From: a virus
Lineage: Duplodnaviria; Heunggongvirae; Uroviricota; Caudoviricetes
Reading direction: 5' to 3' (one strand)
Length of the DNA: 20,745 bases
Virus record (IMG/VR): IMGVR_UViG_3300043438_001962
A program made the translations under genes and the position numbers. The notes beneath the pieces were generated by a model that saw only the letters and a list, made by a program, of their open reading frames with translations, made no database searches and was not told the DNA's origin. This document shows, piece after piece, positions 2 to 20,113 of this stretch. Within the stretch, counting starts at the first letter, position 1. Every line of letters starts with the position of its first letter.

Positions 2-679
2 TTAGCCGGAGTACCGGATGGTAGTTTCAACTATACTAACATGATTGAGTATGTGGATGGTATGGGTGATTATTGGGTGAGATTAGTTGAACAAATGGTT
101 CCAGCAAGTACAATATGGAATACGGGGGTTAAATACGAAAACTCTATTTTTCATAGACAAAAATTTGTTTGGAGAAGACAAGAGGGTTGTCAATTAATAC
201 CTGTTCCTTGTAACCCATGTTCAATGGTTAGTAACCTTTACACTTATGACTGTGATGTTCAGTCAGTACAATGTTCTATCTATCCATGGCAAACTAATCC
301 TCTATTGACAGAATTTAGTGCGGTGTTAGGATATCTGTTAACTAATTATTTGGAGCCACAAGGTTATGAGTTAGATGATTGTAAACTGAATACTTTAAAA
401 AGTACTTGGTATGTGGTGTTAAGTTTAGATGATGTTGTGGTTGTCCAATATCAATTCTTTACGGGTATAGGATATACAAACACTGGTTTGAGTTCACCAA
501 CAACAGCTCAATGGGATGCTGCGTTAATACCTGCTTTAAATGGTTTAGATTTGTATGGTTTTGAGTATATTTTAAATGATACCGATGTGGTTATTTATAG
601 TTCAATTTGTTCGGTAAATGATTCGGGAATCAATTTTAAATTGAATGTTGGAATAAATTTTGAAATTTTATGTAATTAA
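2..679 (+). CDS. C-terminal part of a probable baseplate wedge / tail structural protein (5'-truncated; begins upstream of the window)
   Basis: The frame is open from base 2 ([17 protein letters not shown]...), so the ATG at 41 is probably internal. The segment [12 protein letters not shown]...[10 protein letters not shown] resembles the end of P2 gpI-like baseplate domains as I recall them. The stop overlaps the next start (TAATG at 677-681). Confidence 0.45.
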
Positions 680-3600
680 TGGCTTGTAGTTTATCATATG
701 TATTAACGAGTTTATCGGGAGATTGTACTAATTCTAATTTAGGTGGTTTTAGTATTGATATAACTGGAACCGCACCGGATTATAGTATTCAGTGGGTTAA
801 TCCTGCTTTAGGGACTATTGTATTAGGTGTCGGAGTTACAGGTTATACCGCGACTACATTGTCCGCGGGAACATATTCATTTAACATTCTTGATTCATGT
901 TCACCCACTATGAGTTCATTGCCGGTGAATATTAACATATCTAGTGGTACATGTGCAAGTATTGTTGGAATATCTAACACGACGTGTAATGACAATAATG
1001 GGTCAATAACAGGACAAACGTCTAATCTTTATGGTATAAGTACGTTTAGTTTGTATAATACCTTAACAGGTTTTATTACTTCAGGCGCATCATTTACCAA
1101 TAATTATATTTTTAATAATTTATCTCCGGGTATATACTATGTTAATGCTGACGATGGTGGTGGATGTAGTGGTCAGAGTGAAACAACTATTATTCAACCT
1201 TCGACAAATATTACGTGGGGATTTTATACTGTAATGGATTCCGGATGTGCTAATGTTGATTCGGGGAAAATATATGTAACAGGTCTTACCGGAACACCAC
1301 CATTTACTTATTTATGGTCTAATGGAGGGACAGACGATTTTATTACAGGATTGACTGCGGGTAGTTATTCTGTTCTTATTACTGATAGTTTAGGGTGTAC
1401 CCTATCTCAAACAGCAACAGTTACTGAAGTTGAACCATTAGGTTTTGGGTCGTTTACCGCCATACCACCAACATGTTTTAATAATGATGGTCAAGTGACT
1501 CTTGTAATTACAGGAGGGACTGGACCATATTATTATTCAGCATCGACAGGTGTTATAGAGGTTTCTTTTAGTTCATCTCAAACATTTTATAATATTGGTG
1601 GTGGACCATTTGCTGTTGAAGTTACTGACGCAGCTTTATGTAAAATAACTCCAACAACAACAATTATTCCACCAAACGGGTTTAATATCGTAAGTGTAAC
1701 GACAACTAATTCAAATTGTGGTAATAGTGATGGTAAAATAGATATTCAGGTAAGTGGTGGTGCAGTTCCTTTTACTTATACTTTAACAGATTCTTTAGGT
1801 AATAGTATTATTGAACCTACTGATTTTAGAAGTTGGATTTTTTCTAATTTAGCGACGGGGACATATACTTTAACTATTTCTGATAATGGAGGTTGTACTT
1901 ATGTTAGTCCACCTATCACCATAAATAATATTCCTTTATTTACGTTTACTGCAGATACTACAGATACAATATGTAATTTAAATAATGGTTATGTAATGAT
2001 TACAGTATCAGGTGGTACACCGCCTTACACATATACTGTTGGGGGTGAATTTTCTTATGACTCTATCCAAACACCATTAAGTGCATATACTTTTATTGAT
2101 TTATATTCCGGAGATTATTCGTTAGAAATAACAGAATCAACTCCTGGTATTATTTGTAAACAAACAAGTAGTTTTATGATTAACCCATCAAACAACGTTG
2201 ATTTTATGTTATCAGGTACTGATGCTAACAATGGTAATGATGGTACAGTTTCAGCATATATTACAAGTGGAACACCTCCATTCACATTATTATGGAGTAA
2301 TAACGTAAATGGTCAAACAGGGTATTATTTAAGTAATTTAAGTGCCGGAACATACAGTTTACAAATCACGGATAGTGAAGCGTGTGTTAAAATTAGAGAG
2401 GTAACAATAGATGGGTTTGACTCTATCTCATCATTTCAAACATTTAATATTTGTGATAGTGAATTTGAAAACATTGGGGAATTAGTTAAAAAAGGTCCTA
2501 AAGAAATGTTGAATGAAGGTTATTATGATTTAACATCAGGATATACAAATTGTTTACTTAATCAAGCAATTTTTAATATAGTTGCAACTATTGGTGATGT
2601 AACAGAAACTTCAGAGTTTTATACAAGTTATGCTTTAAATGATTTTCCAACAGATAATGAATATTTTGACGCTTTAGTCGCGTTATTAGAAACTTTTGAC
2701 CAAGTCGCTCAAGTTAACATTGACCCATTAAACAACGGAATTCAAATAATTGCTAAATGTCAAGAACAATATTTAGTGACAACTGATGTTACTGTTGATA
2801 TGTTTATTGAATATAATATTTCATGTCAATATTGTAGTTTACCGCCAACACAAACTCCAACACAAACTCCAACACAAACTCCAACACCAACTCAAACATT
2901 AACTCAAACTCCAACACCAACTCAAACTCTTACATCAACTGCTGGATTAACACCAACTCCGACTCCTACTCAAACATTAACACAAACATTAACACCAACA
3001 CCAACTCAAACACCAACATTAACGCCAACTCAAACTCAAACATTAACACCAACTCAAACACCTACATCAACTATGACACCAACTCCTAGTTCAAAACAAT
3101 TATGGTATTTATATACATCATGTGAAGTTGATGTTAATACTGAGGGACCGGCCTACTTAATTTTACAACCTATATTAGTAAATCCTTTATTAGGTGTTGG
3201 TGACGGATTTACTTTTACTGATGAAAATGGTAAGGTAACGTGTTGGATATTAAGAGAAATTTATAATGGACAACCAACAAACTTACCACCACAATTTAAT
3301 GTTCAAATTTGGAACACTAATTATTTTACAACAATTGGTAATGGTATTTACGATTCACAAAATGGTGCTGTTGATGCTTGTGGATTATGCGAGAAAGATA
3401 TTGAATTAATTTTAGAACCAACAAATAATTTCCTTATTAGTGTTACAAAAGATGATTCGCAAATCATAGATGTACAACCACCGTTCTACCTATATGATAA
3501 TACATATAATTTCCCTGTAGGGGTCTTAAATCCTATGTATGGTACACATAACGGTATTAACAATGAAACTATATTTATTACGATTCAATCAATTAATGAA

Positions 3601-3768
3601 TCAAATACAAATATTTGTATTTCATTAATCGTTAATGGTTCTGTAGCAGCGTCACAAATAGGGACATTCTCAAGTGGGGTTTTATTTATAGATGTTTCAT
3701 TTACGGGTGTAACAATTTTACCAACAGATACTTTAGAAATTTTTGTGACTGCAGGTGATTGTCAATAA
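679..3768 (+). CDS. 1029-aa putative virion surface/fibre protein: about 7 SprB-like Ig repeats, a ~140-aa Cys-flanked domain, a Pro/Thr linker and C-terminal domains
   Basis: Repeats of about 80 aa carry C-x-x-x-x-G-x-I and G-G-T-x-P-(Y/F)-x-Y-x-W motifs ([61 protein letters not shown]), typical of SprB repeats. A TPTQ/TPTP tract lies at 2842-3090. Translation is coupled to the upstream gene. Confidence 0.7.
2842..3090 (+). repeat. Pro/Thr/Gln low-complexity tract (TPTQ/TPTP repeats)
   Basis: Three perfect copies of CCAACACAAACT at 2845-2880 are followed by degenerate CCAAC-rich units, encoding about 80 aa of mostly P/T/Q/L. Confidence 0.95.
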
Positions 3769-3804
3769 TAAAAAACCCCCTCGTTAAAAGGGGGTTATTT
3801 TTTT
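3769..3804. terminator. Bidirectional rho-independent terminator
   Basis: A perfect 8-bp stem AACCCCCT (3774-3781) / AGGGGGTT (3789-3796) with a 7-nt loop has an A-tract on the left and a T7 tract (3798-3804) on the right. It lies between the stop codons of two convergent genes. Confidence 0.9.
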
Positions 3805-4402
3805 ACCATATTTTTTCTTGTTTCATATGACCTATAACACAACAGTAAGCGTCTGTTTGGTCAAAATTTTCTTTTTTCAGAGTATTGTTTCTTGTGTATA
3901 ACCAAGTGATTTGAGGTTCTCTTTTGGCAATTAAATCCCATATAATCATTTTCTTGTCAATGTCTTTAGGAAGTCCTCCGAATAGTACGTATTTACCTTT
4001 ATCGTTTAATTGAGTTAATTCCGGAAAGGCAAACTTACGAGAATTGTATGTTGATATAAAGTTAGGTACAACACCTAATACGTCATATATTTCTTTTGTG
4101 ACTAAAGTATTGAATCTTAATAAAGTTTGAACAGTGTAAACATTATTTGAGTTTAATAAAGGTTCTTCAATAATCACTTTAGTAATCCCCATATCTTTAT
4201 ATTCTAAAAGTTTAGTTCTAAAGATTTGACCCTTTAAAAGTAATTCTTTTATTTTATTTTCTTCTTTCGGTTTTGGTATGGGTGATATATGAGTTAATTC
4301 AAGTAGTTGTTGACTTTGTATATCAAATAACGCCCAACCAATTGTTTTTGTACTCACATCTAATCCTAAAACTTTAGGACTTTCTTTAAGTGTTTTTTTC
4401 AT
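3803..4402 (-). CDS. ruvC: RuvC-like (RNase H fold) Holliday junction resolvase
   Basis: It has the N-terminal VLGLDVSTKTIGWALFD motif (catalytic D), IIEEP (catalytic E) and C-terminal DQTDAY (D-x-x-D-A), and is 199 aa long. Confidence 0.8.
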   Translation of the reverse strand: MKKTLKESPKVLGLDVSTKTIGWALFDIQSQQLLELTHISPIPKPKEENKIKELLLKGQIFRTKLLEYKDMGITKVIIEEPLLNSNNVYTVQTLLRFNTLVTKEIYDVLGVVPNFISTYNSRKFAFPELTQLNDKGKYVLFGGLPKDIDKKMIIWDLIAKREPQITWLYTRNNTLKKENFDQTDAYCCVIGHMKQEKIW

Positions 4403-4408
4403 AATTTA

Positions 4409-6898
4409 TTAGAAATCAAATTTAACCAAAAACTGTTGAATCCCTTGTCTTAACACAGGAGATTGTAGCTTTGATACAATCATAAGATTCATTTCGTTAT
4501 CGTAAAGCCCAATTTCAGTAATATATGAACTTGTTCCTTTAGTCCATGTAGGATTTGAGGTCGATTGAAACTCCGCTTGACCAAGATTTATCTTATATTT
4601 CATTTCATAGATAGTTGCTTCAATATCAGTTTCTAATGAACCATAGAAATAATATTCATCACCAAAATTTAATGAAGGTGTGGTTGTATTACCTGACACT
4701 AATGGAATATAATCATTTAAATTGTAATCATCAGCAGCTGCGTAATTTTCTTCAGTAATGGTAAATGTTGTACCTGTTAAACTATCTACGGTTAAATATC
4801 CATTGATAGTAGTTGCACTTATTTGTGAAGTAAAATCAATGATTTTCCAATCATCCGGGTTAGGTCTACCTGTACCAATTACTTTTTGACAAATAACTTG
4901 GAATGTGTCCGCATAAAACCCTGTAATTAAGTCACAGGAAGGACACAGAGTCGTTGTTGTTGTTGTTGTGGTAGTTGTGGTTGGAATTAACGTTGGTTGG
5001 TTTAAACAAGGGAATTCAGCTCCAAATCTAATTGAAACGTTTTGTTCGGTTAAATTACCACAAGAAATGTTTGGCCCTTGAATTTTAGTATAATAATTAC
5101 AATGTAATGAATTAGTGAAAATATCGGTATTACTAAATCTATAAGTTACATACATATATTCAGTGTCCGCAGTTAATATACCATTAACTGTTGGTTGATT
5201 ATTTTCAACAACACAAGTGTTTGGTGTAGTTAACCCAACTTTAGGTGCCGGTAATGTCCAGTTACGGTTTGACTTGTAAGACATTGCGGCAATAATCTCT
5301 TCATCATCAATAATGATAATTTGTGAATCAGGGAATACTTTACCAACTCTATTTGGTAGACCAGTACTCTCGTTAACATTAGTGTCCCATAAATTATAAT
5401 ATCTAATACCCGGGTCATTCATACCTAAATTTTTAGTTGATAGAATATATTGGTCTTTAAATATTTGAGGAAATGTGTCTGAGTCAAATCCTGGAGGGTC
5501 AACCCAAAAAGTTTGACCTTTACAACATTCAGGATTTTTATGCCACATTAACCACGGCAAATGTAATCTAAAGTTACGAGCTTCACCTGTAGTATCTGAA
5601 GGGTTATTAGAGTCGTAAGGTTCAAAGGCAAATTTCTCACCATAGAAGAAATCAATTGATTGATTAGTATAGTGAATAATAGCAATAGCTTTTTGCTCAC
5701 TTGGTTGAACAACAACTTGTTCATCAAATGAATTATAATAATAAACAACACTTGTATCGGTTTGTCCACTATCTGACATATATCCAAAATATTCTTTACT
5801 ACCTAAATAAGACGCTGAACCAAAATATTGATAACCTTTATAAAATGAATCATACAATCCAGCAGGATTTTCCGACCAAGGAATATTCATATTCCAAATC
5901 TTAACATCTGATTCATCCGTACTACATAAAGATTCAAAATTAATAACATTTTGATTCCAATGTGAGTTAGGTGTAATACTATCGTATAATGTTGTCATAT
6001 TTGGTGGGTATACTAATACTCTAGCGAAACATCCACTTGAAAAGTTTGAAAAGTCAGGTGTTGGTCTGTCTAATGTATATAAACCATTACAGATATCTAT
6101 AATTTTATAAGTTAATATTGGGTAACAACTACTCATTGACATCTCACAATCAGGTGGTGTCGGAGTTGGAGGTAAAGGTGTAGTACAACAAGTTGAAGAA
6201 GGTGTTGGTGTTGGACCTTGGTCACATATGTTAGCACTCTTAGTTATTGTTGGTGTAGGTGTTGGAGTTGGATTGGCCTCGTAAGTTGGTGTAGGTGTAG
6301 GTGTTGAAGTTGGTGTAGGTGTTGGGTTAGGGTCACAATAACAATTGTATTCACCTTGACCGTCGTAATATATTGTAACAAAATCACCAATCATTGGTAA
6401 TCTTACAATATTTGAATTACACCCTGAATACACTAATTGAATAACACTACCACCTGTTAATGTAGACATATCTACAAGATAGTTAGAGTTAATTGTGTAT
6501 TGGCTATTTGTTAACGCACTCCAATTAATTGTAGTTGCTGTTGTATTACCTGTAAAAAATCCTCTCATAGCGGCTCTATTATAAACCGCTTGAGGTACTG
6601 ATGCCATATAAGGAATTCCGTATGTGTTACCGGTTATTCCATCAACATAATACGGGTATTTAACATTTTGTTTGTTTGTTTCAGGTGCAGCAGTTGAATT
6701 CTGAGCATTAAATGCGGGTTCAAGAATATTTGTTGTGAATTGATTATAAGGTGTTCCTGTTAATGTATTGTAAGAAACCTCACTATCACCTACTTGAAAA
6801 TAAGAGATATTAAAACTACCTTGTGATAGTTTTAACCTTGCGGTATCGGTTAACCTTGTGCTAAGTAAACCTTGTGTATTTTTTAATATGTATCCCAT
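4409..6898 (-). CDS. 829-aa baseplate/tail-collar-like structural protein with large internal Cys- and Pro/Thr-rich region
   Basis: The N-terminal LTDTARLKLSQGSFNISYFQVGDSE and C-terminal YITEIGLYDNEMNLMIVSKLQSPVLR resemble the two ends of the phage tail-collar (DUF3751 / P2 gpH N-terminal) domain. There are internal PT tracts and a poly-Thr run. Confidence 0.55.
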   Translation of the reverse strand: MGYILKNTQGLLSTRLTDTARLKLSQGSFNISYFQVGDSEVSYNTLTGTPYNQFTTNILEPAFNAQNSTAAPETNKQNVKYPYYVDGITGNTYGIPYMASVPQAVYNRAAMRGFFTGNTTATTINWSALTNSQYTINSNYLVDMSTLTGGSVIQLVYSGCNSNIVRLPMIGDFVTIYYDGQGEYNCYCDPNPTPTPTSTPTPTPTYEANPTPTPTPTITKSANICDQGPTPTPSSTCCTTPLPPTPTPPDCEMSMSSCYPILTYKIIDICNGLYTLDRPTPDFSNFSSGCFARVLVYPPNMTTLYDSITPNSHWNQNVINFESLCSTDESDVKIWNMNIPWSENPAGLYDSFYKGYQYFGSASYLGSKEYFGYMSDSGQTDTSVVYYYNSFDEQVVVQPSEQKAIAIIHYTNQSIDFFYGEKFAFEPYDSNNPSDTTGEARNFRLHLPWLMWHKNPECCKGQTFWVDPPGFDSDTFPQIFKDQYILSTKNLGMNDPGIRYYNLWDTNVNESTGLPNRVGKVFPDSQIIIIDDEEIIAAMSYKSNRNWTLPAPKVGLTTPNTCVVENNQPTVNGILTADTEYMYVTYRFSNTDIFTNSLHCNYYTKIQGPNISCGNLTEQNVSIRFGAEFPCLNQPTLIPTTTTTTTTTTTLCPSCDLITGFYADTFQVICQKVIGTGRPNPDDWKIIDFTSQISATTINGYLTVDSLTGTTFTITEENYAAADDYNLNDYIPLVSGNTTTPSLNFGDEYYFYGSLETDIEATIYEMKYKINLGQAEFQSTSNPTWTKGTSSYITEIGLYDNEMNLMIVSKLQSPVLRQGIQQFLVKFDF
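4951..4983 (-). repeat. Poly-Thr trinucleotide run (PTTTTTTTTT-LCPSC)
   Basis: (GTT)5 at 4953-4967 on the + strand is extended by degenerate Thr codons. Confidence 0.9.
6160..6332 (-). repeat. Pro/Thr tract flanked by Cys residues
   Basis: It encodes CYCDPNPTPTPTSTPTPTPTYEANPTPTPTPT...PTPTPSSTCCTTPLPPTPTPPDC. Confidence 0.9.
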
Positions 6899-7955: not shown

Positions 7956-10208
7956 TTATGATATTGATATTGTTACACCTTTTGTTGTTTGAAGAGTGCT
8001 ATAGGATGTATAGTTAGTGTATGGTGGTGATGAAGTTCCATTAAGTGCTAATAGTTTAATACCCGACCAAGTTGATGATGCGTAACTCGTTAATAAATTA
8101 TTAATGTTAGTACTATTAAGTCCACTACCAAGTATTTCAATTTGATTTAAATCAGTAAAAATTCTTGAACTATTTGAGAATGTTGATATTGTGTTATTAC
8201 CGCTAATGACTAAAAATCTAATATTTAAATGAACTAATGATAAATCACCAGATATTGTGTTATTACCTAGTATAGTAACATTACGATTGTTAGATGGTAA
8301 ATCTTGAATATTTCCTGAAATTGTATTATTACCATTAATATATAATTGTTGATTAATGTAAGAATTACCTAAACCACTAATATTTCCTGTAACAGTGTTA
8401 TTACCATCTAATCTTAAACTTGCATTAGTTTTTAAATTAACACCACTAATATTTCCTGAAATAGTGTTATTCCCCAGAATAATTATTGTAGATAACGTTG
8501 TATAATTTAATGTTCCAATATTACCATAGAGAGTGTTACTACCTGCAACCTCTAAGAATGTTAGATTTGGTGGTAATGTTGATATATCACCTGTTACAGA
8601 ATTTTGCCCATATAATTGTATAACAGTTACAGAATTAGATAAACCTCCTAAATCACCTGAAACAGTATTAAGTCCTCTTAATTGTATTCTAAATAAATTA
8701 GGTGTTGACATTAAAGAAATGTCATTAGTGATAGTGTTTTGACCTGTAATCTGTAAATCCTCCATTAATGGTGGGCAATTACCAATATTACCAGTTATAG
8801 TATTATTACCACCAACAAAAAAGTTTTTTAATGTTGTCGGTAAATTAGATATATTACCTGATATATTATTTGATTGGTTTGGGAGACTCTGGAATAAATC
8901 TACACCAAATGTTTCTAAACTGCTTGGTAAATTTGCAACATTTCCGGAACAACTAGTTAAGTTTGACGCAAAAGAAATTAACGTTGATGGTAATAAACTT
9001 ATATTACCTGATGTGAAAAAACCAGAACCATAATTACCAAATGTTGTTAATCCATCTAAAATATTTATTTGAGAAGTTTCGACTTCTAAATATCTAACAC
9101 TATTTGAAGTTATTTGAGGAGACACACCTCCAGGTGATAATTGGGTTATAGATGTTAAATCTGCTGTCTGAATTAATATGTTTCCTGTGTAAGGTGTTGA
9201 ATACGTATGTGTAATGTTAATTGACCCTGCCGGATAATTTGTTGTATTACCATCTCCCCAAACAACTCTAAACGGTAAAGATGTAATTACTATAAATGAT
9301 TGTAATGAAGGGCTTACTGTGATACTATTCAAACTTCTCGCAATCATCGTGAAAGTTTGACCGTATGGTGGTAATATTGGTGTTGATGATGTAGGTGTTA
9401 ATGTTTGAGTTGGTGTAGGTGTTAATGTTTTAGTTGGGGTAGGTGTCTGAGTCAATGTCTGAGTCAGTGTTTGAGTTGGAGTATTAGTAGGGACAGCCCC
9501 TGATGTTTGAGTTAAAGTTTGGGTAGGTGTTTGTGTAGGTGTATTAGTTGGGGTTGTGGTTAATGTTTGTGTAGGTGTTTGTGTAGGTGATGCCGTTTGA
9601 GATAAAGTAGGTGTTTGAGTTGGTGTAGGTGTTAACGTAGGTGTTTGAGTAGGTGTAGGTGTTGGACCTGACAATACGCATACGGTATTTGCCGTAAAAT
9701 CACCATATGAATCCACAATAGTCGCAGGATATGACCCCGATTCTAAATCCATAATTGCTGGTGATATACTACCATCGGACCAAGTAATGGTGTAAGGTGG
9801 TGTACCTCCTGTAATAGAAATAGAGGCTCTACCATCACGACCACCAACAGTTGACGGGTTTATTACCTCACATTCAACGGTCATTGGAAATATTGTAATT
9901 ACATCACATTCATTTGATTGAATATAAGTAATTGCTGGCTGAGGTGGAGGAGGTGGAAAACAACTATATGCGTTTTCTATACAATCAGAACGATTAGGAT
10001 ATAATACAACACTTCCATTTCCAGCATCATAAATTAATGACCCTGATGGTATCGGACCTTGTATTAGTGTCGCACATCCACTAAATGATGGTATTGTGAT
10101 TGCATAAACATTCCCTAAAATAGGAGTTGTTAATGTAAGGTCATTTACTCCGAAATAATTATCGGATTCATTTAATTTGACGCAACATGTTTGAAAATAA
10201 TATATCAT
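7956..10208 (-). CDS. 750-aa putative virion surface protein: Cys module, SprB repeat, Pro/Thr linker, PKD-like domain and ~13 leucine-rich repeats
   Basis: It contains GGTPPYTITWSDG (SprB-like), a PT tract at about 9380-9665 and VVWGDGNTT...THTY (PKD-like). It then has 22-24-aa repeats with consensus (I/V)(S/T)G(N/D)I-x-x-L-P-x-x-L-x-x-L-x-(I/L)-x-G-x-N-T, followed by a cap (LNSTNINNLL). Confidence 0.7.
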   Translation of the reverse strand: MIYYFQTCCVKLNESDNYFGVNDLTLTTPILGNVYAITIPSFSGCATLIQGPIPSGSLIYDAGNGSVVLYPNRSDCIENAYSCFPPPPPQPAITYIQSNECDVITIFPMTVECEVINPSTVGGRDGRASISITGGTPPYTITWSDGSISPAIMDLESGSYPATIVDSYGDFTANTVCVLSGPTPTPTQTPTLTPTPTQTPTLSQTASPTQTPTQTLTTTPTNTPTQTPTQTLTQTSGAVPTNTPTQTLTQTLTQTPTPTKTLTPTPTQTLTPTSSTPILPPYGQTFTMIARSLNSITVSPSLQSFIVITSLPFRVVWGDGNTTNYPAGSINITHTYSTPYTGNILIQTADLTSITQLSPGGVSPQITSNSVRYLEVETSQINILDGLTTFGNYGSGFFTSGNISLLPSTLISFASNLTSCSGNVANLPSSLETFGVDLFQSLPNQSNNISGNISNLPTTLKNFFVGGNNTITGNIGNCPPLMEDLQITGQNTITNDISLMSTPNLFRIQLRGLNTVSGDLGGLSNSVTVIQLYGQNSVTGDISTLPPNLTFLEVAGSNTLYGNIGTLNYTTLSTIIILGNNTISGNISGVNLKTNASLRLDGNNTVTGNISGLGNSYINQQLYINGNNTISGNIQDLPSNNRNVTILGNNTISGDLSLVHLNIRFLVISGNNTISTFSNSSRIFTDLNQIEILGSGLNSTNINNLLTSYASSTWSGIKLLALNGTSSPPYTNYTSYSTLQTTKGVTISIS
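9380..9665 (-). repeat. Pro/Thr/Gln low-complexity tract
   Basis: It encodes about 95 aa of [14 protein letters not shown]-type repeats. Confidence 0.95.
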
Positions 10209-10228
10209 TATAATTTGTTTCTGTTATA

Positions 10229-11209
10229 CTATAAATAATCCTTTATTTGTTTTTTTACCAAAGATTTCATAACTTCTACATATTTTTTTGTTGAACTTTG
10301 AGAACTAACATAATCAAAAAAGTTAATATCCTCTTTTAATTTATCTAATGGGTTAATATTAATAAAATCTCCTTTATAAAATTTATCTTGTTTTTGATTA
10401 CCGGTCACACCCGCCATATGAAGAATTGGTTTATCTTCATATATTTTTATTGAGTCGGTTGCCCATGAAAATTCAAACTCGGGTGTAATTCTTGTCTCAA
10501 TTCCGTGTAACCATAAGTTCCATAATAATGACCACATTTCTGCGGTCCAAAATTGAATTTCACCGGGACTTATTGGGAATCTTCTTTGATAATCTAACAT
10601 TTGGTCATATAGTGGAACACAATCTGCATAAATTTTTTCCCATAATAACCAATCCGTATTTTTAATTAGGTATTGACCACCACCTGAATTTTCTTGATTA
10701 CATTCGATACATTCGACTGACACACCAATAACGTCGGCCATTTCGTTAAGTAATTGACCTTTACCGGATGTAGGGTGAGCACTTTCATAACGATTACAAC
10801 AATCCATAATATAGTTATATCCGATATAACCTATGGTATCGGATAAGTAAGTAATATCGTCATTAATTAAACTATCAAAATTTGGTAATTTTCTGAATAT
10901 AATATCAGAATCGTGTAAGAAGAAACATTTACCATGTTCAGGAAAATCTTTTAACCATTTTGAAATTAAAAAAGGTTTAACTGTCGGTATATAATGTTTT
11001 TGAGGTCTATCGTCGATATAATGATGTACGTTAACTCCGGTATCTTTTAATTTTAAAGATTCTTTAGTTGGTTTACCATCTTTACTTATTATTCCAAGTA
11101 ATACGTGTATTTGATTAGGGGGAACACCATGTTCAATAAAGTTATGTATATACACCATTATTTGCCAATGGAAATAAGGTACATCAGGTTGTGCTGTAAC
11201 AAAAATCAT
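10229..11209 (-). CDS. GT-A fold glycosyltransferase resembling plant peptidyl-serine galactosyltransferase / hydroxyproline O-arabinosyltransferase (SERGT1/HPAT; GT96/GT95-like)
   Basis: Motifs occur in the family order: PYFHWQ (aa 11-16), YIPTVKPFLISKWL, FFLHDSDIIFR (DxD at aa 100-102) and FWTAEMWSL (W221). They parallel the SERGT1 motifs YFDWQ / YPAINKP / ILDADMI / WISEMY as I recall them. There is no signal peptide or TM anchor. Confidence 0.7.
   Translation of the reverse strand: MIFVTAQPDVPYFHWQIMVYIHNFIEHGVPPNQIHVLLGIISKDGKPTKESLKLKDTGVNVHHYIDDRPQKHYIPTVKPFLISKWLKDFPEHGKCFFLHDSDIIFRKLPNFDSLINDDITYLSDTIGYIGYNYIMDCCNRYESAHPTSGKGQLLNEMADVIGVSVECIECNQENSGGGQYLIKNTDWLLWEKIYADCVPLYDQMLDYQRRFPISPGEIQFWTAEMWSLLWNLWLHGIETRITPEFEFSWATDSIKIYEDKPILHMAGVTGNQKQDKFYKGDFININPLDKLKEDINFFDYVSSQSSTKKYVEVMKSLVKKQIKDYL
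10230..10237 (-). promoter_or_regulatory. TATTTATA motif, candidate late promoter
   Basis: It overlaps the last codons of the glycosyltransferase gene (TAT TTA TAG) and lies 21 nt before the start at 10208. Confidence 0.4.
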
Positions 11210-11247
11210 ATTATATAAAACGTTTTTAATTAAATATAAATGACAAT

Positions 11248-11255
11248 CAAATGTA
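11248..11255 (-). promoter_or_regulatory. Possible Bacteroidota-type -7 element (TACATTTG) for the glycosyltransferase gene
   Basis: It matches TAnnTTTG on the - strand, 38 nt upstream of the ATG at 11209. No TTG -33 element is present at the expected spacing. Confidence 0.3.
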
Positions 11256-11275
11256 ATAAATGGTAAAGATGATGA

Positions 11276-11283
11276 TATTTATA
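11276..11283 (+). promoter_or_regulatory. TATTTATA motif, candidate late promoter
   Basis: The sequence reads TATTTATA-TAAT-ATG, the same 4-nt spacing as at 6898. Confidence 0.5.
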
Positions 11284-11287
11284 TAAT

Positions 11288-11467
11288 ATGAAACTGATTA
11301 GAACAATATCGAATTTGGTAACTGAATCTAAAAAAATTTACGAAGAAGCCTGTGAAAAAGGTGTCAACGAAAAAGAATTAGATAGATTAGAAAAAAACTA
11401 CAACGAATCCTTAAAACTTTTAAGGATTTATGAGGGTTTGAATAAAACCAAACAAGAAAATATTTAA
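11288..11467 (+). CDS. 59-aa charged, probably helical/coiled-coil hypothetical protein (not in the ORF track)
   Basis: My translation is MKLIRTISNLVTESKKIYEEACEKGVNEKELDRLEKNYNESLKLLRIYEGLNKTKQENI*. It fills the gap between 11209 and 11464, has the TATTTATA motif upstream, and its stop overlaps the stop of the convergent gene (TTAA at 11464-11467). Confidence 0.7.
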   Translation: MKLIRTISNLVTESKKIYEEACEKGVNEKELDRLEKNYNESLKLLRIYEGLNKTKQENI

Positions 11468-14400
11468 GTCCAAGAATATTTTATTTCAACTCCACTAATA
11501 TGGACTGTCCATCTCATAGTATCTCCAACAGCACCGGTTACTTGTATATCTAAAGCATCATTTGTATCATCCGCAGATATTGTAACGTCATACAAAGCGT
11601 TATCTTCAACATCTGTCCCTATGGTTGATACCGGACTCGCACCAATTAATGAAGTTGTTCCACCTACATTTTTAATGGCAACTTTTCTTATATAGTGAGC
11701 TGCTGATGTACCACCACTAGTAATTCCTGCAATATTAATAGTAACAAACATTGCGGTTTCGTTTAAAACTGATATTCTTTGTGATGAACCATCTAAAAAA
11801 ATGTTAACAGTTGTTACACCTGTTGTTGTATTTCTACCTAATAAATCTATTTGTTGTGTCTCACCTGTACCGGTAAATGGTGTCCAAGTTCCATTTGCAA
11901 ACGACCTTTGTCCAAAACGAGGAGCACAAGCTCTATTACCGCCAATAATAGATGAATTTTCTCCATACGCTCTATTAAGAAAACCTCCCGTTACTGTTGA
12001 AGATGCTCCAGATGCGACATTTAGTTGACCACCACCAATTGTTGAATTTGCCCCCGATGCGGTATTTTCTCTACCACCCCCAACAGTTGAATAATTATCA
12101 CTTGCTGAATTACAAAAACCTCCGGCAATCGTTGCACGATTTCCATTTACAGTATTATCCCATCCACCACCTATTGTTGAAAAAAATCCTGAAACGATAT
12201 TACTTATACCACCACCAATAACTGAGGTACACCCTGATGCGGTGTTACAAAACCCACCACCTATTGTTGAATCAACACCTGAGGCGATATTACTTCTACC
12301 ACCACCAATAAATGAGTTAGTACCTTGTGTTGTGTTAAAACCACCACCGGCAATTGTTGAACGATAACCGTTAGCACAATTACCTCGTCCACCACCAATA
12401 GAAGAATCTCTACATACTGAATTATTCTCTCGACCTCCACCAATAAATGAATATTCTCCTAATAACGTATTACATCTACCACCACCTATTGTTGAATCTA
12501 TTCCACCTGATGTATTACATCTACCACCGGCAATTGTTGAAGTAGAACCTGATGATGTATTATTTGAACCACCACCAATAAATGAATAAACTCCTGATGC
12601 CGTATTACAATTACCACCACCAACAACAGTTGAAGTTGATGATGATATGTTACCACCACCACTACCTACAAAAGAACGTAAACCTGATGCCGTATTACCA
12701 TTACCACCACCTATTGTTGAAAAACAACATGATGCCGTGTTTTTAAAACCACCACCAACAGTTGACCAACAACCTGAAGATAAATTACAACTACCACCAC
12801 CAATAAATGAAGTACATCCTGATGCGGTGTTACAATATCCACCACCCACAAATGAAAAACAATTACTTGAAGTGTTTCCTGTACCTCCACCTACAAATGA
12901 AAAATATTCGGAAGAGGTGTTTTTACAACCACCACCAACAAATGATGACTTACATGAGAGATGACAGACACCTGTACCAACAAATGAACCACTTCGTGCA
13001 CAATTACAAAATCCATTTGATATGATTGAATAACTACCACATGCGGTGTTTTTACGGCCTCCTATGATAGCGGAACTAGTACCATAAACTATGTTACAAC
13101 AACCACCACCAATAAATGACTGATAACCGTATCCAACACAATTAGATTGTCCCCCAACTATAGATGAATATTTAGTATAATATGAAGATATATAATTAGA
13201 TTTACCACCACCAATTGTTGAAAACACACTTGATACTGTATTTCCTGAACCACCAACAATTGACGAACAATTACCGATAGCACAATTAGTAGTACCACCA
13301 CCGACAAATGATAATGCTGATGTCACATTTTTACAACCTCCGGCAATTGTTGAGGTATTACCTGATGCTATATTACAACATCCAGCGCCAATAAATGAAT
13401 AAGCTCCTGAAGATGTGTTACTTAGTCCACCGGCAATTGTTGACCTAAAACATGAAGATGTGTTAGATTGTCCACCACCAACTGTTGAATACTGAGACGA
13501 TGCTATGTTCTTACACCCACCTCCAACAAATGAACAATTTCCTGACGCGGTATTATTTCTACCACCGGATATTGTTGAATCTATTCCTCCTGATGTATTA
13601 TTTCTACCTCCGGCAATTGTTGAAGTTTGCCCTGTGGCGACATTTAAACTTCCACCACCAATGAATGAAAAATTACCTGAAACTGTGTTTTGATTACCAC
13701 CACCAATTGTTGATGAGGTACCAGATACTATATTACCAACACCACCACCAATTGTTGTACAATAGTCTAAAGCGTTATTATTTATACCTCCCCCAATAAA
13801 TGTATAATTACAAGAGACTGTATTATTTCTACCACCGGCTATTGTTGAATAATTACCATTAGATTCGTTACTAAAACCCCCACCAATTGTTGAATGAGGA
13901 CCTGAAGCAATATTACTACTACCACCACCAATAAATGAACATGCCCCCGATGCTGTGTTTTTATAACCACCACCAATTGTTGAAGTACTACCAGAAACAG
14001 TATTACCACAACCACCACCAATAAATGAATGAGTTCCTCCACTAATAATGTTTTGATTTCCCCCAACTACAACTGAAAAATCTGTTGTTCCCGAGTTTGA
14101 TGACCCACCTAATACTGCACTACAATTTCCCGATGCAAGATTACTAACACCACATCTAACAGATGAGTTAACACCTGTTCCGGTTATAATTACGGCTGAT
14201 GAACCACCACCTCCACCACCGGCAATAGGTACTAAAAGTCCATTTGTGCTAACTCCAACATAACAACCACTACAAGTACTCATAGAGTCAATAATCATGT
14301 CGTTAACAAATGTTGTACAATTTCTATTTGCAGTTATATTACTACCAACAATCATAGCACATGTGCAACCACTAGTATTATTAGACGAACCACCTAATAT

Positions 14401-16638
14401 TGATGAATAATTACCGGATGATATATTACCTCTACCACCACCAATAAATGAATGGGTACTTGTTATAGTATTTTGACTACCACCAACAATACTTGAAGTG
14501 GCACCTGATACGGTATTACCAATACCTCCCCCAATAAATCCTTGACAAAATCCACCTGAACTTGTTGTAAAATTTCGTAAAAGTGGTTGTGACGAAGGGA
14601 ACGCTCCCATTGCGGCAGTTGCTCCAGTAACATATAAGTTTGTATATGGTGATGAATATGTTTGACCTGTAATAACTACGTTTCTACTACATCCAAAATT
14701 GTCATATGTTAATAAAAGGTCGTTTACACTAAATGATGATAATTGATTCCCGTACAATTGTATTGTACAAGTGTTTGCCGAATATGATGATATTACTTGA
14801 GAATTACCTATAAAGTTTAATGCTCCACCACCAATCATTGAATGACTAGCAAATGTTACATTAACGCTTCCGCCTCCAATAACACCAAAGTCTTCTACGA
14901 CTCTATTATTATTACCACTTACAATACCACCACCATAAGAACATTGACCTAAACAGTTTCCACATCCACCTAAAATTGCTGCTCTAACTCCATATGTTTT
15001 ATTATTTAATCCTCCACCAATAACACCATCTTCACCAACGCCTGTTGTACCCGATATCATATTACTTCTACCACCACCAATAAATCCAAATTCGTTACAT
15101 ATTGTATTACTAATACCACCGGCAATTACTGAATTTGATGGGTTCAGTGTATTACTAGTAATACGATTGTTAAACCCACCACCTATTGAAGAAGATGTTC
15201 CACAAATAAAATTAAATCTACCACCGGCAATTGTTGAGTAATTACAACATGAGGTATTAAAACAACCTCCCCCAACTGTTGAACAACCACCTACTGAACA
15301 GTTAAGATAACCACCACCAATTGTTGAACAATTTCCTGATGCGGTATTTCGACGACCACCACCAATAAATGATGTAGCTCCTGATGAGATATTACAACAA
15401 CCACCACCAATCGTACCATATACTGTATACACAATATTTGATTTTCCACCACCAATGAATGAATAAGGACTACAGGTAATATTACATCTACCTCCAGTAA
15501 TTGTTGATTTATCTCCACAAACAGTATTTTGCATTCCACCACCAATGGTTGAACTGTCACAATAAGATTTGTTATTCGCTCCACCACCAACAGTTGAGTT
15601 ATTCGCTAAGGCATAGTTGCAATAACCACCGGCAATAGTTGCATCACCACTATTTGCTCCTGGACCAATAACACATGCTAAATTATATCCACCACCACCA
15701 ATTGTATTTCTTGGCCCAATAACAACATTACAACAACCACCGATTATTGTTGAAGTATTTCCTGATATTCTGTTATAATCACCCCCACCAATGAATGATG
15801 TTGTCCCACCACTAATTATGTTTTTAGACCCCCCAACTACAACTGAAGAATCTGTTGTTGCTGAGTTTGAAATACCACCACCAATAAATGAATTGTTTCC
15901 TGATGCGGTATTTTGTTGACCACCAACTATTGTTGAGGTTATATTTGTTGATGAGTTTAATATACCACCACCAATAAATGAATTGTCTCCTAATGCTTGA
16001 TTTTCTTGACCACCACCTACGGTTGAACCACCGCATGAGGTATTACAAAGTCCCCCACCAATAAAAGAATAATTATCTGATAAGGTATTCTTACTACCAC
16101 CACCAATTGTACTTCCTATTGAATTATTGCAAATAATATTACAATAACCTCCAGCAATTGTAGAACTTCGTGTTACATTTTTACCAACACCCACAAAAAT
16201 ACTATTATAAAGACCACCACCAATTGTTGATGTACCACCTGAAACACTATTACAAAAACCACCACTTATAGTTGAATCATTATTTGATACCGTATTACAA
16301 CGACCACCTCCAATAAACGAATGTGTTCCTCCACTAACTACATTTTGTCGTCCACCAACAACCATTGAATAGTTTGTAGTTGCTGAGTTTGAATATCCAC
16401 CTAAAGCACCGGAATTATCTCCTGATGCAAGATTATTAACATCTCTTCTAATTGATGAGTTAACACCTGTACCACTTACAATTACAACAAATGGTGAACC
16501 ACTAATTGCTTCATCGATTGTTGATTTATATGATGAACCTGCAGGATTTTGAGTCGGGTTATTAGTATCAACAATGTGAATTAATGTTTGACTTGTTGTA
16601 AACCCTGATGGTGAATATGTTCTTTGAGTTAAAATCAT
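11464..16638 (-). CDS. 1724-aa long tail fibre / adhesin-like protein with 15-residue Gly-rich repeats and a C-terminal globular domain
   Basis: Dozens of (S/F)-x-I-G-G-G-x-x-N-x-A-S-G units occur with a 15-aa period. The N-terminus is short and anchor-like (LIHIVD...GSSYKSTI), and the last ~150 aa are non-repetitive and beta-rich. Confidence 0.7.
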   Translation of the reverse strand: MILTQRTYSPSGFTTSQTLIHIVDTNNPTQNPAGSSYKSTIDEAISGSPFVVIVSGTGVNSSIRRDVNNLASGDNSGALGGYSNSATTNYSMVVGGRQNVVSGGTHSFIGGGRCNTVSNNDSTISGGFCNSVSGGTSTIGGGLYNSIFVGVGKNVTRSSTIAGGYCNIICNNSIGSTIGGGSKNTLSDNYSFIGGGLCNTSCGGSTVGGGQENQALGDNSFIGGGILNSSTNITSTIVGGQQNTASGNNSFIGGGISNSATTDSSVVVGGSKNIISGGTTSFIGGGDYNRISGNTSTIIGGCCNVVIGPRNTIGGGGYNLACVIGPGANSGDATIAGGYCNYALANNSTVGGGANNKSYCDSSTIGGGMQNTVCGDKSTITGGRCNITCSPYSFIGGGKSNIVYTVYGTIGGGCCNISSGATSFIGGGRRNTASGNCSTIGGGYLNCSVGGCSTVGGGCFNTSCCNYSTIAGGRFNFICGTSSSIGGGFNNRITSNTLNPSNSVIAGGISNTICNEFGFIGGGRSNMISGTTGVGEDGVIGGGLNNKTYGVRAAILGGCGNCLGQCSYGGGIVSGNNNRVVEDFGVIGGGSVNVTFASHSMIGGGALNFIGNSQVISSYSANTCTIQLYGNQLSSFSVNDLLLTYDNFGCSRNVVITGQTYSSPYTNLYVTGATAAMGAFPSSQPLLRNFTTSSGGFCQGFIGGGIGNTVSGATSSIVGGSQNTITSTHSFIGGGRGNISSGNYSSILGGSSNNTSGCTCAMIVGSNITANRNCTTFVNDMIIDSMSTCSGCYVGVSTNGLLVPIAGGGGGGSSAVIITGTGVNSSVRCGVSNLASGNCSAVLGGSSNSGTTDFSVVVGGNQNIISGGTHSFIGGGCGNTVSGSTSTIGGGYKNTASGACSFIGGGSSNIASGPHSTIGGGFSNESNGNYSTIAGGRNNTVSCNYTFIGGGINNNALDYCTTIGGGVGNIVSGTSSTIGGGNQNTVSGNFSFIGGGSLNVATGQTSTIAGGRNNTSGGIDSTISGGRNNTASGNCSFVGGGCKNIASSQYSTVGGGQSNTSSCFRSTIAGGLSNTSSGAYSFIGAGCCNIASGNTSTIAGGCKNVTSALSFVGGGTTNCAIGNCSSIVGGSGNTVSSVFSTIGGGKSNYISSYYTKYSSIVGGQSNCVGYGYQSFIGGGCCNIVYGTSSAIIGGRKNTACGSYSIISNGFCNCARSGSFVGTGVCHLSCKSSFVGGGCKNTSSEYFSFVGGGTGNTSSNCFSFVGGGYCNTASGCTSFIGGGSCNLSSGCWSTVGGGFKNTASCCFSTIGGGNGNTASGLRSFVGSGGGNISSSTSTVVGGGNCNTASGVYSFIGGGSNNTSSGSTSTIAGGRCNTSGGIDSTIGGGRCNTLLGEYSFIGGGRENNSVCRDSSIGGGRGNCANGYRSTIAGGGFNTTQGTNSFIGGGRSNIASGVDSTIGGGFCNTASGCTSVIGGGISNIVSGFFSTIGGGWDNTVNGNRATIAGGFCNSASDNYSTVGGGRENTASGANSTIGGGQLNVASGASSTVTGGFLNRAYGENSSIIGGNRACAPRFGQRSFANGTWTPFTGTGETQQIDLLGRNTTTGVTTVNIFLDGSSQRISVLNETAMFVTINIAGITSGGTSAAHYIRKVAIKNVGGTTSLIGASPVSTIGTDVEDNALYDVTISADDTNDALDIQVTGAVGDTMRWTVHISGVEIKYSWT
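11930..16440 (-). repeat. Two arrays of degenerate 45-nt coding repeats
   Basis: CCACCACCAATTGTTGA / CCACCACCAATAAATGA recur on the + strand at roughly 45-nt intervals. They are interrupted by an insert at about 14545-14810 and a neck/linker at about 14190-14400. Confidence 0.9.
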
Positions 16639-19207: not shown

Positions 19208-20113
19208 TTAAGTTTTATTATATAAGTAACCCTCTAATCCACAATCAATACACGGAGATGGAATTCCTGAAGATGTTGGTGTAGGAGTTGGAGTTGGTGT
19301 AGGTATAATTGATTCTGAACATAAAATACAATCCGCACCTATTTGACTTCCATAAGGACCAATTAGTAATGTAATATCATCAATACCGATTGTGTTATTA
19401 TTAACCCCAATATATCCAACACATATTACTGTCCCATTAACGTTAGCTTGATAAACTTGAAAATTTTCAATTGGGATATTTCCTGGTGTAACTAATTGAT
19501 TTGTGGTATAATACATCGTACCGTCATAACAATTTTGGAATTGATAACTATAAGGACATACAATACTATCATCAATTGTATTGAAAGTTACCCCTTGTTC
19601 AAAAGTACAAGTACGAGCAATTTGTGCCGATGGTGTCGGGGTCATTGTAGGTGTTGGTGTTGGAGTGGAAGTAACACTTTGAATTGTTGCACTTATAACT
19701 ACATTACAAAATTTAGTTGGTGTAGGTGTTGGTGTAGGTGTTAATGTAGTTGTACTAGTTACAGTTGGTGTTGGAGTTGTTTCAAAATCACAATCAAATA
19801 TTGCTGAGAAATTTAAATTTGCACAATTTAATGTTGGTGTGGGAGTTGGTGTTGGACACGCTCCAATAGAAAAATAAACATCATCTAAATCCGGACACGG
19901 GTTGAAACAAGGTGATTGACCCGATAAAAGACAAGACCCGTCTAAAACTGTTGATAAACACCATTGAGTTGACCCTGTGTTATAATAAATGGATAATCCA
20001 TTTGTTTGACCGGTCCAATATAGTTGAGAATTCCATGTCCCTGCACTAAAGTATAGGTCGTTAAATGTTGGGTAACCAGTGTTTGAAAGGCAATATGTAG
20101 AACTACACGGCAT
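19208..20113 (-). CDS. 301-aa Cys-rich modular protein with four Pro/Thr tracts (putative virion surface protein)
   Basis: Small Cys-flanked modules alternate with PTPTPT linkers. The start is 1 nt after the upstream stop. Confidence 0.7.
   Translation of the reverse strand: MPCSSTYCLSNTGYPTFNDLYFSAGTWNSQLYWTGQTNGLSIYYNTGSTQWCLSTVLDGSCLLSGQSPCFNPCPDLDDVYFSIGACPTPTPTPTLNCANLNFSAIFDCDFETTPTPTVTSTTTLTPTPTPTPTKFCNVVISATIQSVTSTPTPTPTMTPTPSAQIARTCTFEQGVTFNTIDDSIVCPYSYQFQNCYDGTMYYTTNQLVTPGNIPIENFQVYQANVNGTVICVGYIGVNNNTIGIDDITLLIGPYGSQIGADCILCSESIIPTPTPTPTPTSSGIPSPCIDCGLEGYLYNKT

Follow-up and report, generated by a model that had tools for sequence, protein, structure and literature searches.

The 326-aa protein encoded at positions 10229-11209 of a phage genome fragment is, in our assessment, likely to be a cytoplasmic initiating O-glycosyltransferase for virion proteins that carry threonine (Thr) tags, with donor, activity and benefit to the phage predicted at most. 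The fold, the conserved catalytic-site motifs, the homology to HPAT/SERGT proteins, the absence of a membrane anchor, the position in structural gene modules and the co-variation with Thr runs are all computed results. Since the enzyme is present or absent together with Thr runs in four unrelated groups of phages, these phages probably sugar-coat their own particles, a reading drawn from comparative sequence analysis. With rather less confidence, we lean towards a widespread module, so far undescribed, in which one soluble HPAT/SERGT-related enzyme is paired with a portable poly-Thr tag on a chosen virion protein, in both Bacillota siphophages and aquatic jumbo phages, the same enzyme family also serving peptide clusters of Bacteroidota. 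If so, the family would be a prokaryotic and viral sister of a glycosyltransferase group that is regarded as plant-specific.

The enzyme gene lies in a fragment of a jumbo phage

The window, meaning the whole stretch of 20,745 nucleotides analysed here, comes from a 40.6 kb virus record, among whose genes are those for baseplate wedge subunits and a ribonucleotide reductase. The closest complete relative that we found measures 318 kb and has an enzyme copy 94% identical to ours, from which we infer that the window is one piece of a jumbo tailed phage genome. Its DNA is present in lake-water runs, and positions 9882-11500 are identical to a contig of a public freshwater run, possibly the run from which the window DNA originates. 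In RNA runs, contigs of close relatives span the enzyme gene, which as contigs cannot demonstrate transcription, and a promoter scan returned fewer sites than shuffled sequences did.

10229-11209, minus strand: putative gene for a 326-aa GT-A glycosyltransferase of the PHROG 4417 family, remotely homologous to HPAT/SERGT proteins (PF23452), assigned from the open reading frame, the model and profile and structure comparison

The slot upstream of the enzyme gene, whose length differs greatly among relatives, is occupied here by a gene for a 1724-aa protein (11464-16638, minus strand) that consists mostly of 15-residue GGGxxN repeats. Between this repeat gene and the enzyme gene, a 59-aa open reading frame without a Pfam match lies on the opposite strand (11288-11467, plus strand).

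Conserved motifs and absence of a membrane anchor

The first-pass annotation had likened the protein to the plant families on the basis of four motifs. Together with a C-terminal His, they map as follows.

11162-11176, minus strand: YFHWQ motif, aa 12-16, aligning with YFDWQ of SERGT-type proteins; W15 invariant
10973-10993, minus strand: YIPTVKP motif, aa 73-79, aligning with Y-x-x-x-N-K-P of SERGT-type proteins; Y73 invariant
10904-10912, minus strand: DxD motif, D100 and D102, both invariant; putative site of Mn2+/diphosphate binding
10532-10549, minus strand: WTAEMW motif, aa 221-226, aligning with WISEMY; position 224 variable
10409-10420, minus strand: HMAG motif, with H264 in 148 of 149 homologs; putative GT-A C-terminal metal-binding His position, aligning with the HYG of SERGT-type proteins

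The open reading frame and the order of the four motifs were confirmed, with the WL pair (aa 85-86) following YIPTVKP. W15, Y73, D100, D102, G177, M225, F247, F277 and K279 are invariant in 149 homologs, and W221, W226 and H264 are each found in 147 or 148 of them, a level of conservation indicating that the motifs are more than a chance resemblance. The third motif had been described as DSDII preceded by hydrophobic residues: DSDII is indeed present (aa 100-104), but the residue right before its first Asp is a His. At residue 224, the acidic position of WxxEM, 81 of the 149 homologs have Asp, 45 have Glu and 20 have Gly, a split that possibly marks subfamilies with different acceptors.

No membrane anchor was detected in the enzyme, whose highest 19-residue hydropathy is 0.83 and whose domain begins at residue 1; a hydrophobic segment occurs in 3 of 293 homologs. 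As the annotation had proposed, the lack of an anchor points to a cytoplasmic location.

The enzyme is a putative sister of the plant HPAT and SERGT families

The family is large (at least 1374 homologs at 90% clustering, 814 clusters at 50%). The enzyme matches PHROG 4417 (E 1.7e-68), also known as 'prophage pi2 protein 34' or Orf49 of Lactobacillus phage LP65, which is annotated as of unknown function, and none of the libraries searched gives it one. Single-sequence searches of Pfam, NCBIfam and the PDB gave no significant match, and a profile search of the PDB gave no glycosyltransferase at E 10, only a spurious repeat match to TAL effectors. The AlphaFold2 model has a pLDDT of 97.9, and its best PDB matches are GT-A enzymes of the GT8, GT24 and GT6 types (TM 0.37-0.46, Z 13-15). 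The predicted model and the conservation together give a GT-A fold with a DxD motif and a C-terminal His.

Outside its own family, the best predicted-structure match in the Atlas is a chlorophyte cluster (TM 0.73 over 292 residues) in which 99% of the members carry PF23452, the HPAT domain. HPAT is thus the closest structural neighbour among named families, with a TM of 0.73, from a comparison of model with model, against at most 0.46 in the PDB. For profile comparison, a eukaryotic set was fetched with a short SERGT-type motif, 30 domains were aligned, and a Pfam check followed, in which all eight of the 30 sequences that were checked scored above the curated PF23452 cut-off of 23.9 bits. HHalign aligned the phage profile with the 30 eukaryotic sequences over 247 columns (probability 90.2, E 1.6e-6, about 19% identity), with the four motifs and the C-terminal His and Lys all in register, and the single enzyme sequence also matched the eukaryotic profile (86%, E 5.1e-6). 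In the reciprocal fold search, the top viral match of a SERGT-type model was the protein that tops the list of the phage model.

The annotation had held that best structural matches of GT8 type would speak against the plant relationship. Such matches do head the list in the PDB, but they are uninformative, since a genuine SERGT-type model gives a similar spread of GT6, GT8 and GT24 enzymes at the same Z level; in our searches of the PDB, nothing solved came close to the HPAT/SERGT group. These comparisons support the enzyme as a remote homolog of the plant and algal HPAT/SERGT proteins, so that this part of the original assignment stands, while formal membership in GT95 or GT96 does not. PF23452 did not match the enzyme, nor the whole contig or the controls, and reached at best E 0.09 in 2 of 149 homologs; in the Atlas it occurs on 10% of the members of two related viral clusters. 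A score below the Pfam HPAT cut-off and the missing anchor place the family, on sequence grounds, best as a sister of GT95/GT96 and not as a formal member. This placement makes no choice between GT95 and GT96, the eukaryotic sequences having been gathered by a SERGT-type motif. Among longer homologs, the search yielded 28 fused prokaryotic or viral forms but not a single eukaryotic SERGT1; the fusion partners in the family include PF11397, GT2/GT7C, GT6, GT25, O-FucT, methyltransferase and radical SAM domains.

A Thr run co-varies with the enzyme in the jumbo phage lineage

The best candidate acceptor in the window is encoded close to the enzyme gene.

4409-6898, minus strand: 829-aa conserved phage protein without a family match, presumed virion component
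4949-4981, minus strand: 11 consecutive Thr (aa 640-650) within the 829-aa protein, in which runs of at least five Thr co-vary with the enzyme

This is the only run of at least five Thr among the open reading frames of 80 aa or more on the contig. A tail-collar domain had been suggested for the 829-aa protein, and domain searches did not confirm it. In all relatives inspected, the 829-aa gene adjoins a gene for a 199-aa RuvC-like resolvase (3803-4402 in the window, minus strand; PHROG 159, E 1e-4).

We used the 829-aa neighbour as an anchor to collect 46 enzyme-positive and 7 enzyme-negative distinct sequences. A run of at least five Thr was found in the anchor protein of 43 of the 46 positives and in none of the 7 negatives, which derive mostly from fragments, only two of the records being complete. 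Absence of the enzyme was confirmed by whole-record searches, including those two genomes rated complete, and the negatives sit at four places on the tree. In the 9-kb neighbourhood of three enzyme-positive jumbo relatives whose motifs are intact, no run of five Thr occurs. Genome-wide, a pattern of six Thr codons matched 12 and 9 times in two positive records, compared with 0, 2 and 1 times in three negative ones, and those matches away from the anchor that were inspected in positive genomes are in-frame Thr runs. Two enzyme-positive jumbo genomes have, far from the enzyme, a gene with multiple Thr runs beside open reading frames that look like glycosyltransferases (L499, 4654-9000; L500, 3974-7854), a possible glycan-extension cluster.

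Thr tags accompany the enzyme in cultured phages and siphophages

Homologs of the enzyme occur in 77 cultured phage records, mostly from phages of Lactobacillus, Enterococcus, Staphylococcus, Lactococcus and Clostridium; among the 50,697 phage records searched, none was from a Mycobacterium phage. In the four siphophage records that we read, the enzyme gene is part of the morphogenesis operon and immediately follows a head or tail gene, and capsid, decoration or tail-tube proteins at the siphophage loci, whose families were confirmed, end in Thr runs. A run of at least six Thr was found within 5 kb of the enzyme in 5 of 5 cultured phages and at 15 of 16 Bacillota loci. One prophage (L141) has the enzyme and only a weak Thr tail.

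For a test of presence and absence, loci were fetched by their major tail proteins with the tag cut from the query, and enzyme and tag were then scored. Across three siphophage groups, the major tail protein has a C-terminal Thr tag at 29 of 31 enzyme-positive loci, whereas none of the 26 enzyme-negative loci has one. Counted as distinct tail sequences per group, the tag is found in 16/18, 5/5 and 8/8 positives against 0/2, 0/4 and 0/20 negatives, the Enterococcus positives being near-copies that carry little weight. The tree of the Bacillaceae group shows four gains or losses of the enzyme, each accompanied by the same change in the tail tag. Independent contrasts on supported branches are few, numbering 3, 1 and 3 in the sets compared, with none in the opposite direction; pooled, the seven give a two-sided sign-test p near 0.02, slightly weaker when a tagless positive is drawn, and no set is significant alone.

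A prophage nested among the positives (L266, 7489-9600) has neither the enzyme nor the tail-tube tag and keeps a Thr tag on one other protein, so that it looks like an intermediate of decay. At five loci counted as positive (L166, L205, L234, L264 and L294), the enzyme gene is spread over two or three frames and the tags are retained; the split may be due to sequencing error or to recent inactivation.

Chromosomal homologs of Bacteroidota lie in peptide clusters

The chromosomal homologs of Bacteroidota are mostly 450-590 aa long, often with a second domain of GT2/GT7C type, and sit without Thr tags among peptidase-containing ABC exporters, LanC-like genes and short leader-peptide precursors. 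Ten such loci (L094, L099, L104, L113, L114, L117, L121, L130, L137 and L152, around position 6000) resemble RiPP clusters. This setting points to acceptors that are again peptides, of another kind, and makes the clusters candidates for an undescribed glycopeptide pathway.

Proposed function

We propose that the enzyme is a soluble, metal-dependent GT-A glycosyltransferase of a phage and bacterial sister family to plant GT95/GT96. Late in infection it would draw a nucleotide sugar from the host pool, the host presumably supplying the donor, and would transfer the first sugar onto Thr hydroxyls in poly-Thr tags, both the Thr acceptor and the initiating role being predicted. In this phage, the acceptor would be the T640-650 run of the 829-aa neighbour, a putative virion protein, and in siphophages the C-terminal tags on capsid, decoration and tail-tube proteins. 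Transfer is predicted to depend on Mn2+ and to take place in the cytoplasm, before or during assembly. The families nearest to the enzyme are retaining, which makes a retaining mechanism probable. The benefit might lie in protection from proteases, in stiffening of linkers or in altered surface recognition.

Alternative acceptors and activities

The plant analogy in the first-pass annotation had implied Pro-rich, extensin-like acceptors, and three proteins encoded in the window have Pro-Thr tracts.

7956-10208, minus strand: 750-aa gene that follows the enzyme gene after 20 nt and encodes an SprB repeat and a Pro-Thr stalk (9378-9665); possible secondary acceptor, with stalks that persist without the enzyme
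679-3768, plus strand: 1029-aa protein with SprB repeats and a Pro-Thr stalk (2854-3072); context, a role as acceptor unsupported by co-variation
19208-20113, minus strand: 301-aa protein with Pro-Thr tracts; context, acceptor status unsupported by co-variation

It is quite unlikely that the main acceptors are the Pro-Thr stalks of such neighbouring fibre-like proteins. The immediate proximity of the enzyme gene to a stalk gene speaks for it, as do a Thr/Pro tract within 10 kb of the enzyme in 77 of 80 jumbo relatives and Pro-Thr repeat counts in the anchor protein that are slightly higher with the enzyme (p 0.048, ignoring kinship). That the 750-aa gene directly downstream has Pro-Thr repeats and no Thr run also counts against the poly-Thr reading. 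Yet enzyme-less relatives, two complete genomes among them, keep the stalks in full, for which reason we rejected them as diagnostic acceptors, while the siphophage tags are almost pure Thr. A search for prolyl hydroxylases of the PF13640 type, limited to that family, found none in five records, and none of the PF01370 epimerases was found in two enzyme-positive relatives; in the closest complete relative, neither an epimerase nor a PF13640 prolyl hydroxylase was detected, which argues against arabinosylation of hydroxyproline (Hyp). The analogy with Pro or Hyp acceptors is therefore probably misleading, since it is poly-Thr runs and not Pro-rich repeats that track the enzyme gene. Three PF01370 epimerase genes, along with several GT2/GT1-like genes, occur in an enzyme-less complete genome (G011, the record of L350), so that epimerases give no clue to the donor sugar; this phage may use a different glycan system. 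In two loci whose enzyme is 99% identical to ours (L001 and L002), only a 186-aa open reading frame occupies the slot of the 750-aa gene (directly downstream of position 10978 of these loci), which is split or truncated there.

Co-variation with the tags would look identical if the enzyme elongated a glycan on virion proteins whose first sugar is set on Thr by the host or by another phage enzyme. The best solved-structure matches include glycan-extending GT8, GT24 and GT6 enzymes, and at least six GT2-like and two GT1-like genes are present in the closest complete relative. We nevertheless regard elongation as unlikely: the nearest named relatives, HPAT and SGT1, are initiating peptide O-glycosyltransferases, the pairing of enzyme and tag holds in Bacillota and aquatic phages with very different hosts, the siphophage modules that we read carry no second annotated glycosyltransferase, and the fusions to GT2/GT7C, GT6, GT25 and PF11397 domains fit a primer-plus-extender design. 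Recognition of Thr tags in a non-glycosyl role, whether the attachment of some other nucleotide-activated group or service as an assembly factor, appears very unlikely, even if nucleotidyl- and phosphotransferases are also found among the lower-ranked GT-A-like matches and residue 224 varies, as the top fold matches are all glycosyltransferases, the DxD and the His hardly vary and fusions to other glycosyltransferase domains recur in the family. Viral glycosyltransferases that act on DNA or on the host serotype are well known, and phage VPE25 has both a homolog and glycosylated DNA, but the paper on VPE25 assigns its DNA glycosylation to a separate T4-like beta-glucosyltransferase; a gene in virion modules, an enzyme without an anchor and a Thr-tag co-variation that neither target explains make modification of phage DNA or host surface highly improbable. 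Initiating glycosylation of Thr-tagged virion proteins is thus the reading that we prefer.

If this reading is true, virion glycosylation would reach, through a different enzyme family, the jumbo phages of lakes as well as siphophages of dairy, gut and soil, and a recognisable acceptor tag would make glycosylated virions predictable from sequence. With 77 cultured records, including Lactobacillus and Lactococcus phages, it is directly testable. A small soluble homolog would also be a practical model for the mechanism and origin of the HPAT group, and one enzyme with a short peptide tag could serve cytoplasmic glyco-engineering.

Comparison with known systems

The DNA glucosyltransferases AGT and BGT of T-even phages have a GT-B fold. 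This fold is not shared by the phage enzyme, whose model is GT-A throughout its length, bearing out the original view that the two are unlike. Retaining GT-A enzymes of GT8, GT24 and GT6 (glycogenin, Skp1 galactosyltransferase, UGGT, LgtC and WbbM) are the best solved matches, with an rmsd of 3.2-4.2 over 209-245 residues, but with 6-13% identity and a TM of at most 0.46.

Closer likeness is seen with plant and algal SGT1/SERGT1 (GT96, peptidyl-serine alpha-galactosyltransferase) and HPAT1-3 (GT95, hydroxyproline O-arabinosyltransferases), which have in common with the phage enzyme the GT-A fold, the motifs in register and, presumably, the transfer of a first sugar to a hydroxyl of a peptide. 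The families GT95 and GT96 are related to each other, and HPATs are type II membrane proteins of the Golgi (PMC8012813) that have been described as plant-specific (PMC4738400). The phage enzyme differs in its low profile identity, in having no type II anchor and a predicted cytoplasmic location, and in its likely acceptor, Thr runs in place of Hyp or Ser-Hyp.

We found no literature on the function of the PHROG 4417 family or on poly-Thr tags in a search outside which most subscription journals lay. Phage-encoded virion glycosylation as such is already known from mycobacteriophages, whose glycosyltransferases, according to two papers (PMC12619734 and PMC10877033) that cite the original work (Freeman et al. 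2023), modify capsid and tail-tube subunits at their C-termini. Those are the sites at which the siphophages studied here have their Thr tags, and in both cases a phage-encoded glycosyltransferase is linked to virion proteins with accessible Ser/Thr termini, here by operon position and co-variation. The enzymes differ, since no mycobacteriophage among the 50,697 phage records searched matches the PHROG 4417 family; in the phages studied here, a single enzyme is paired with a dedicated poly-Thr tag.
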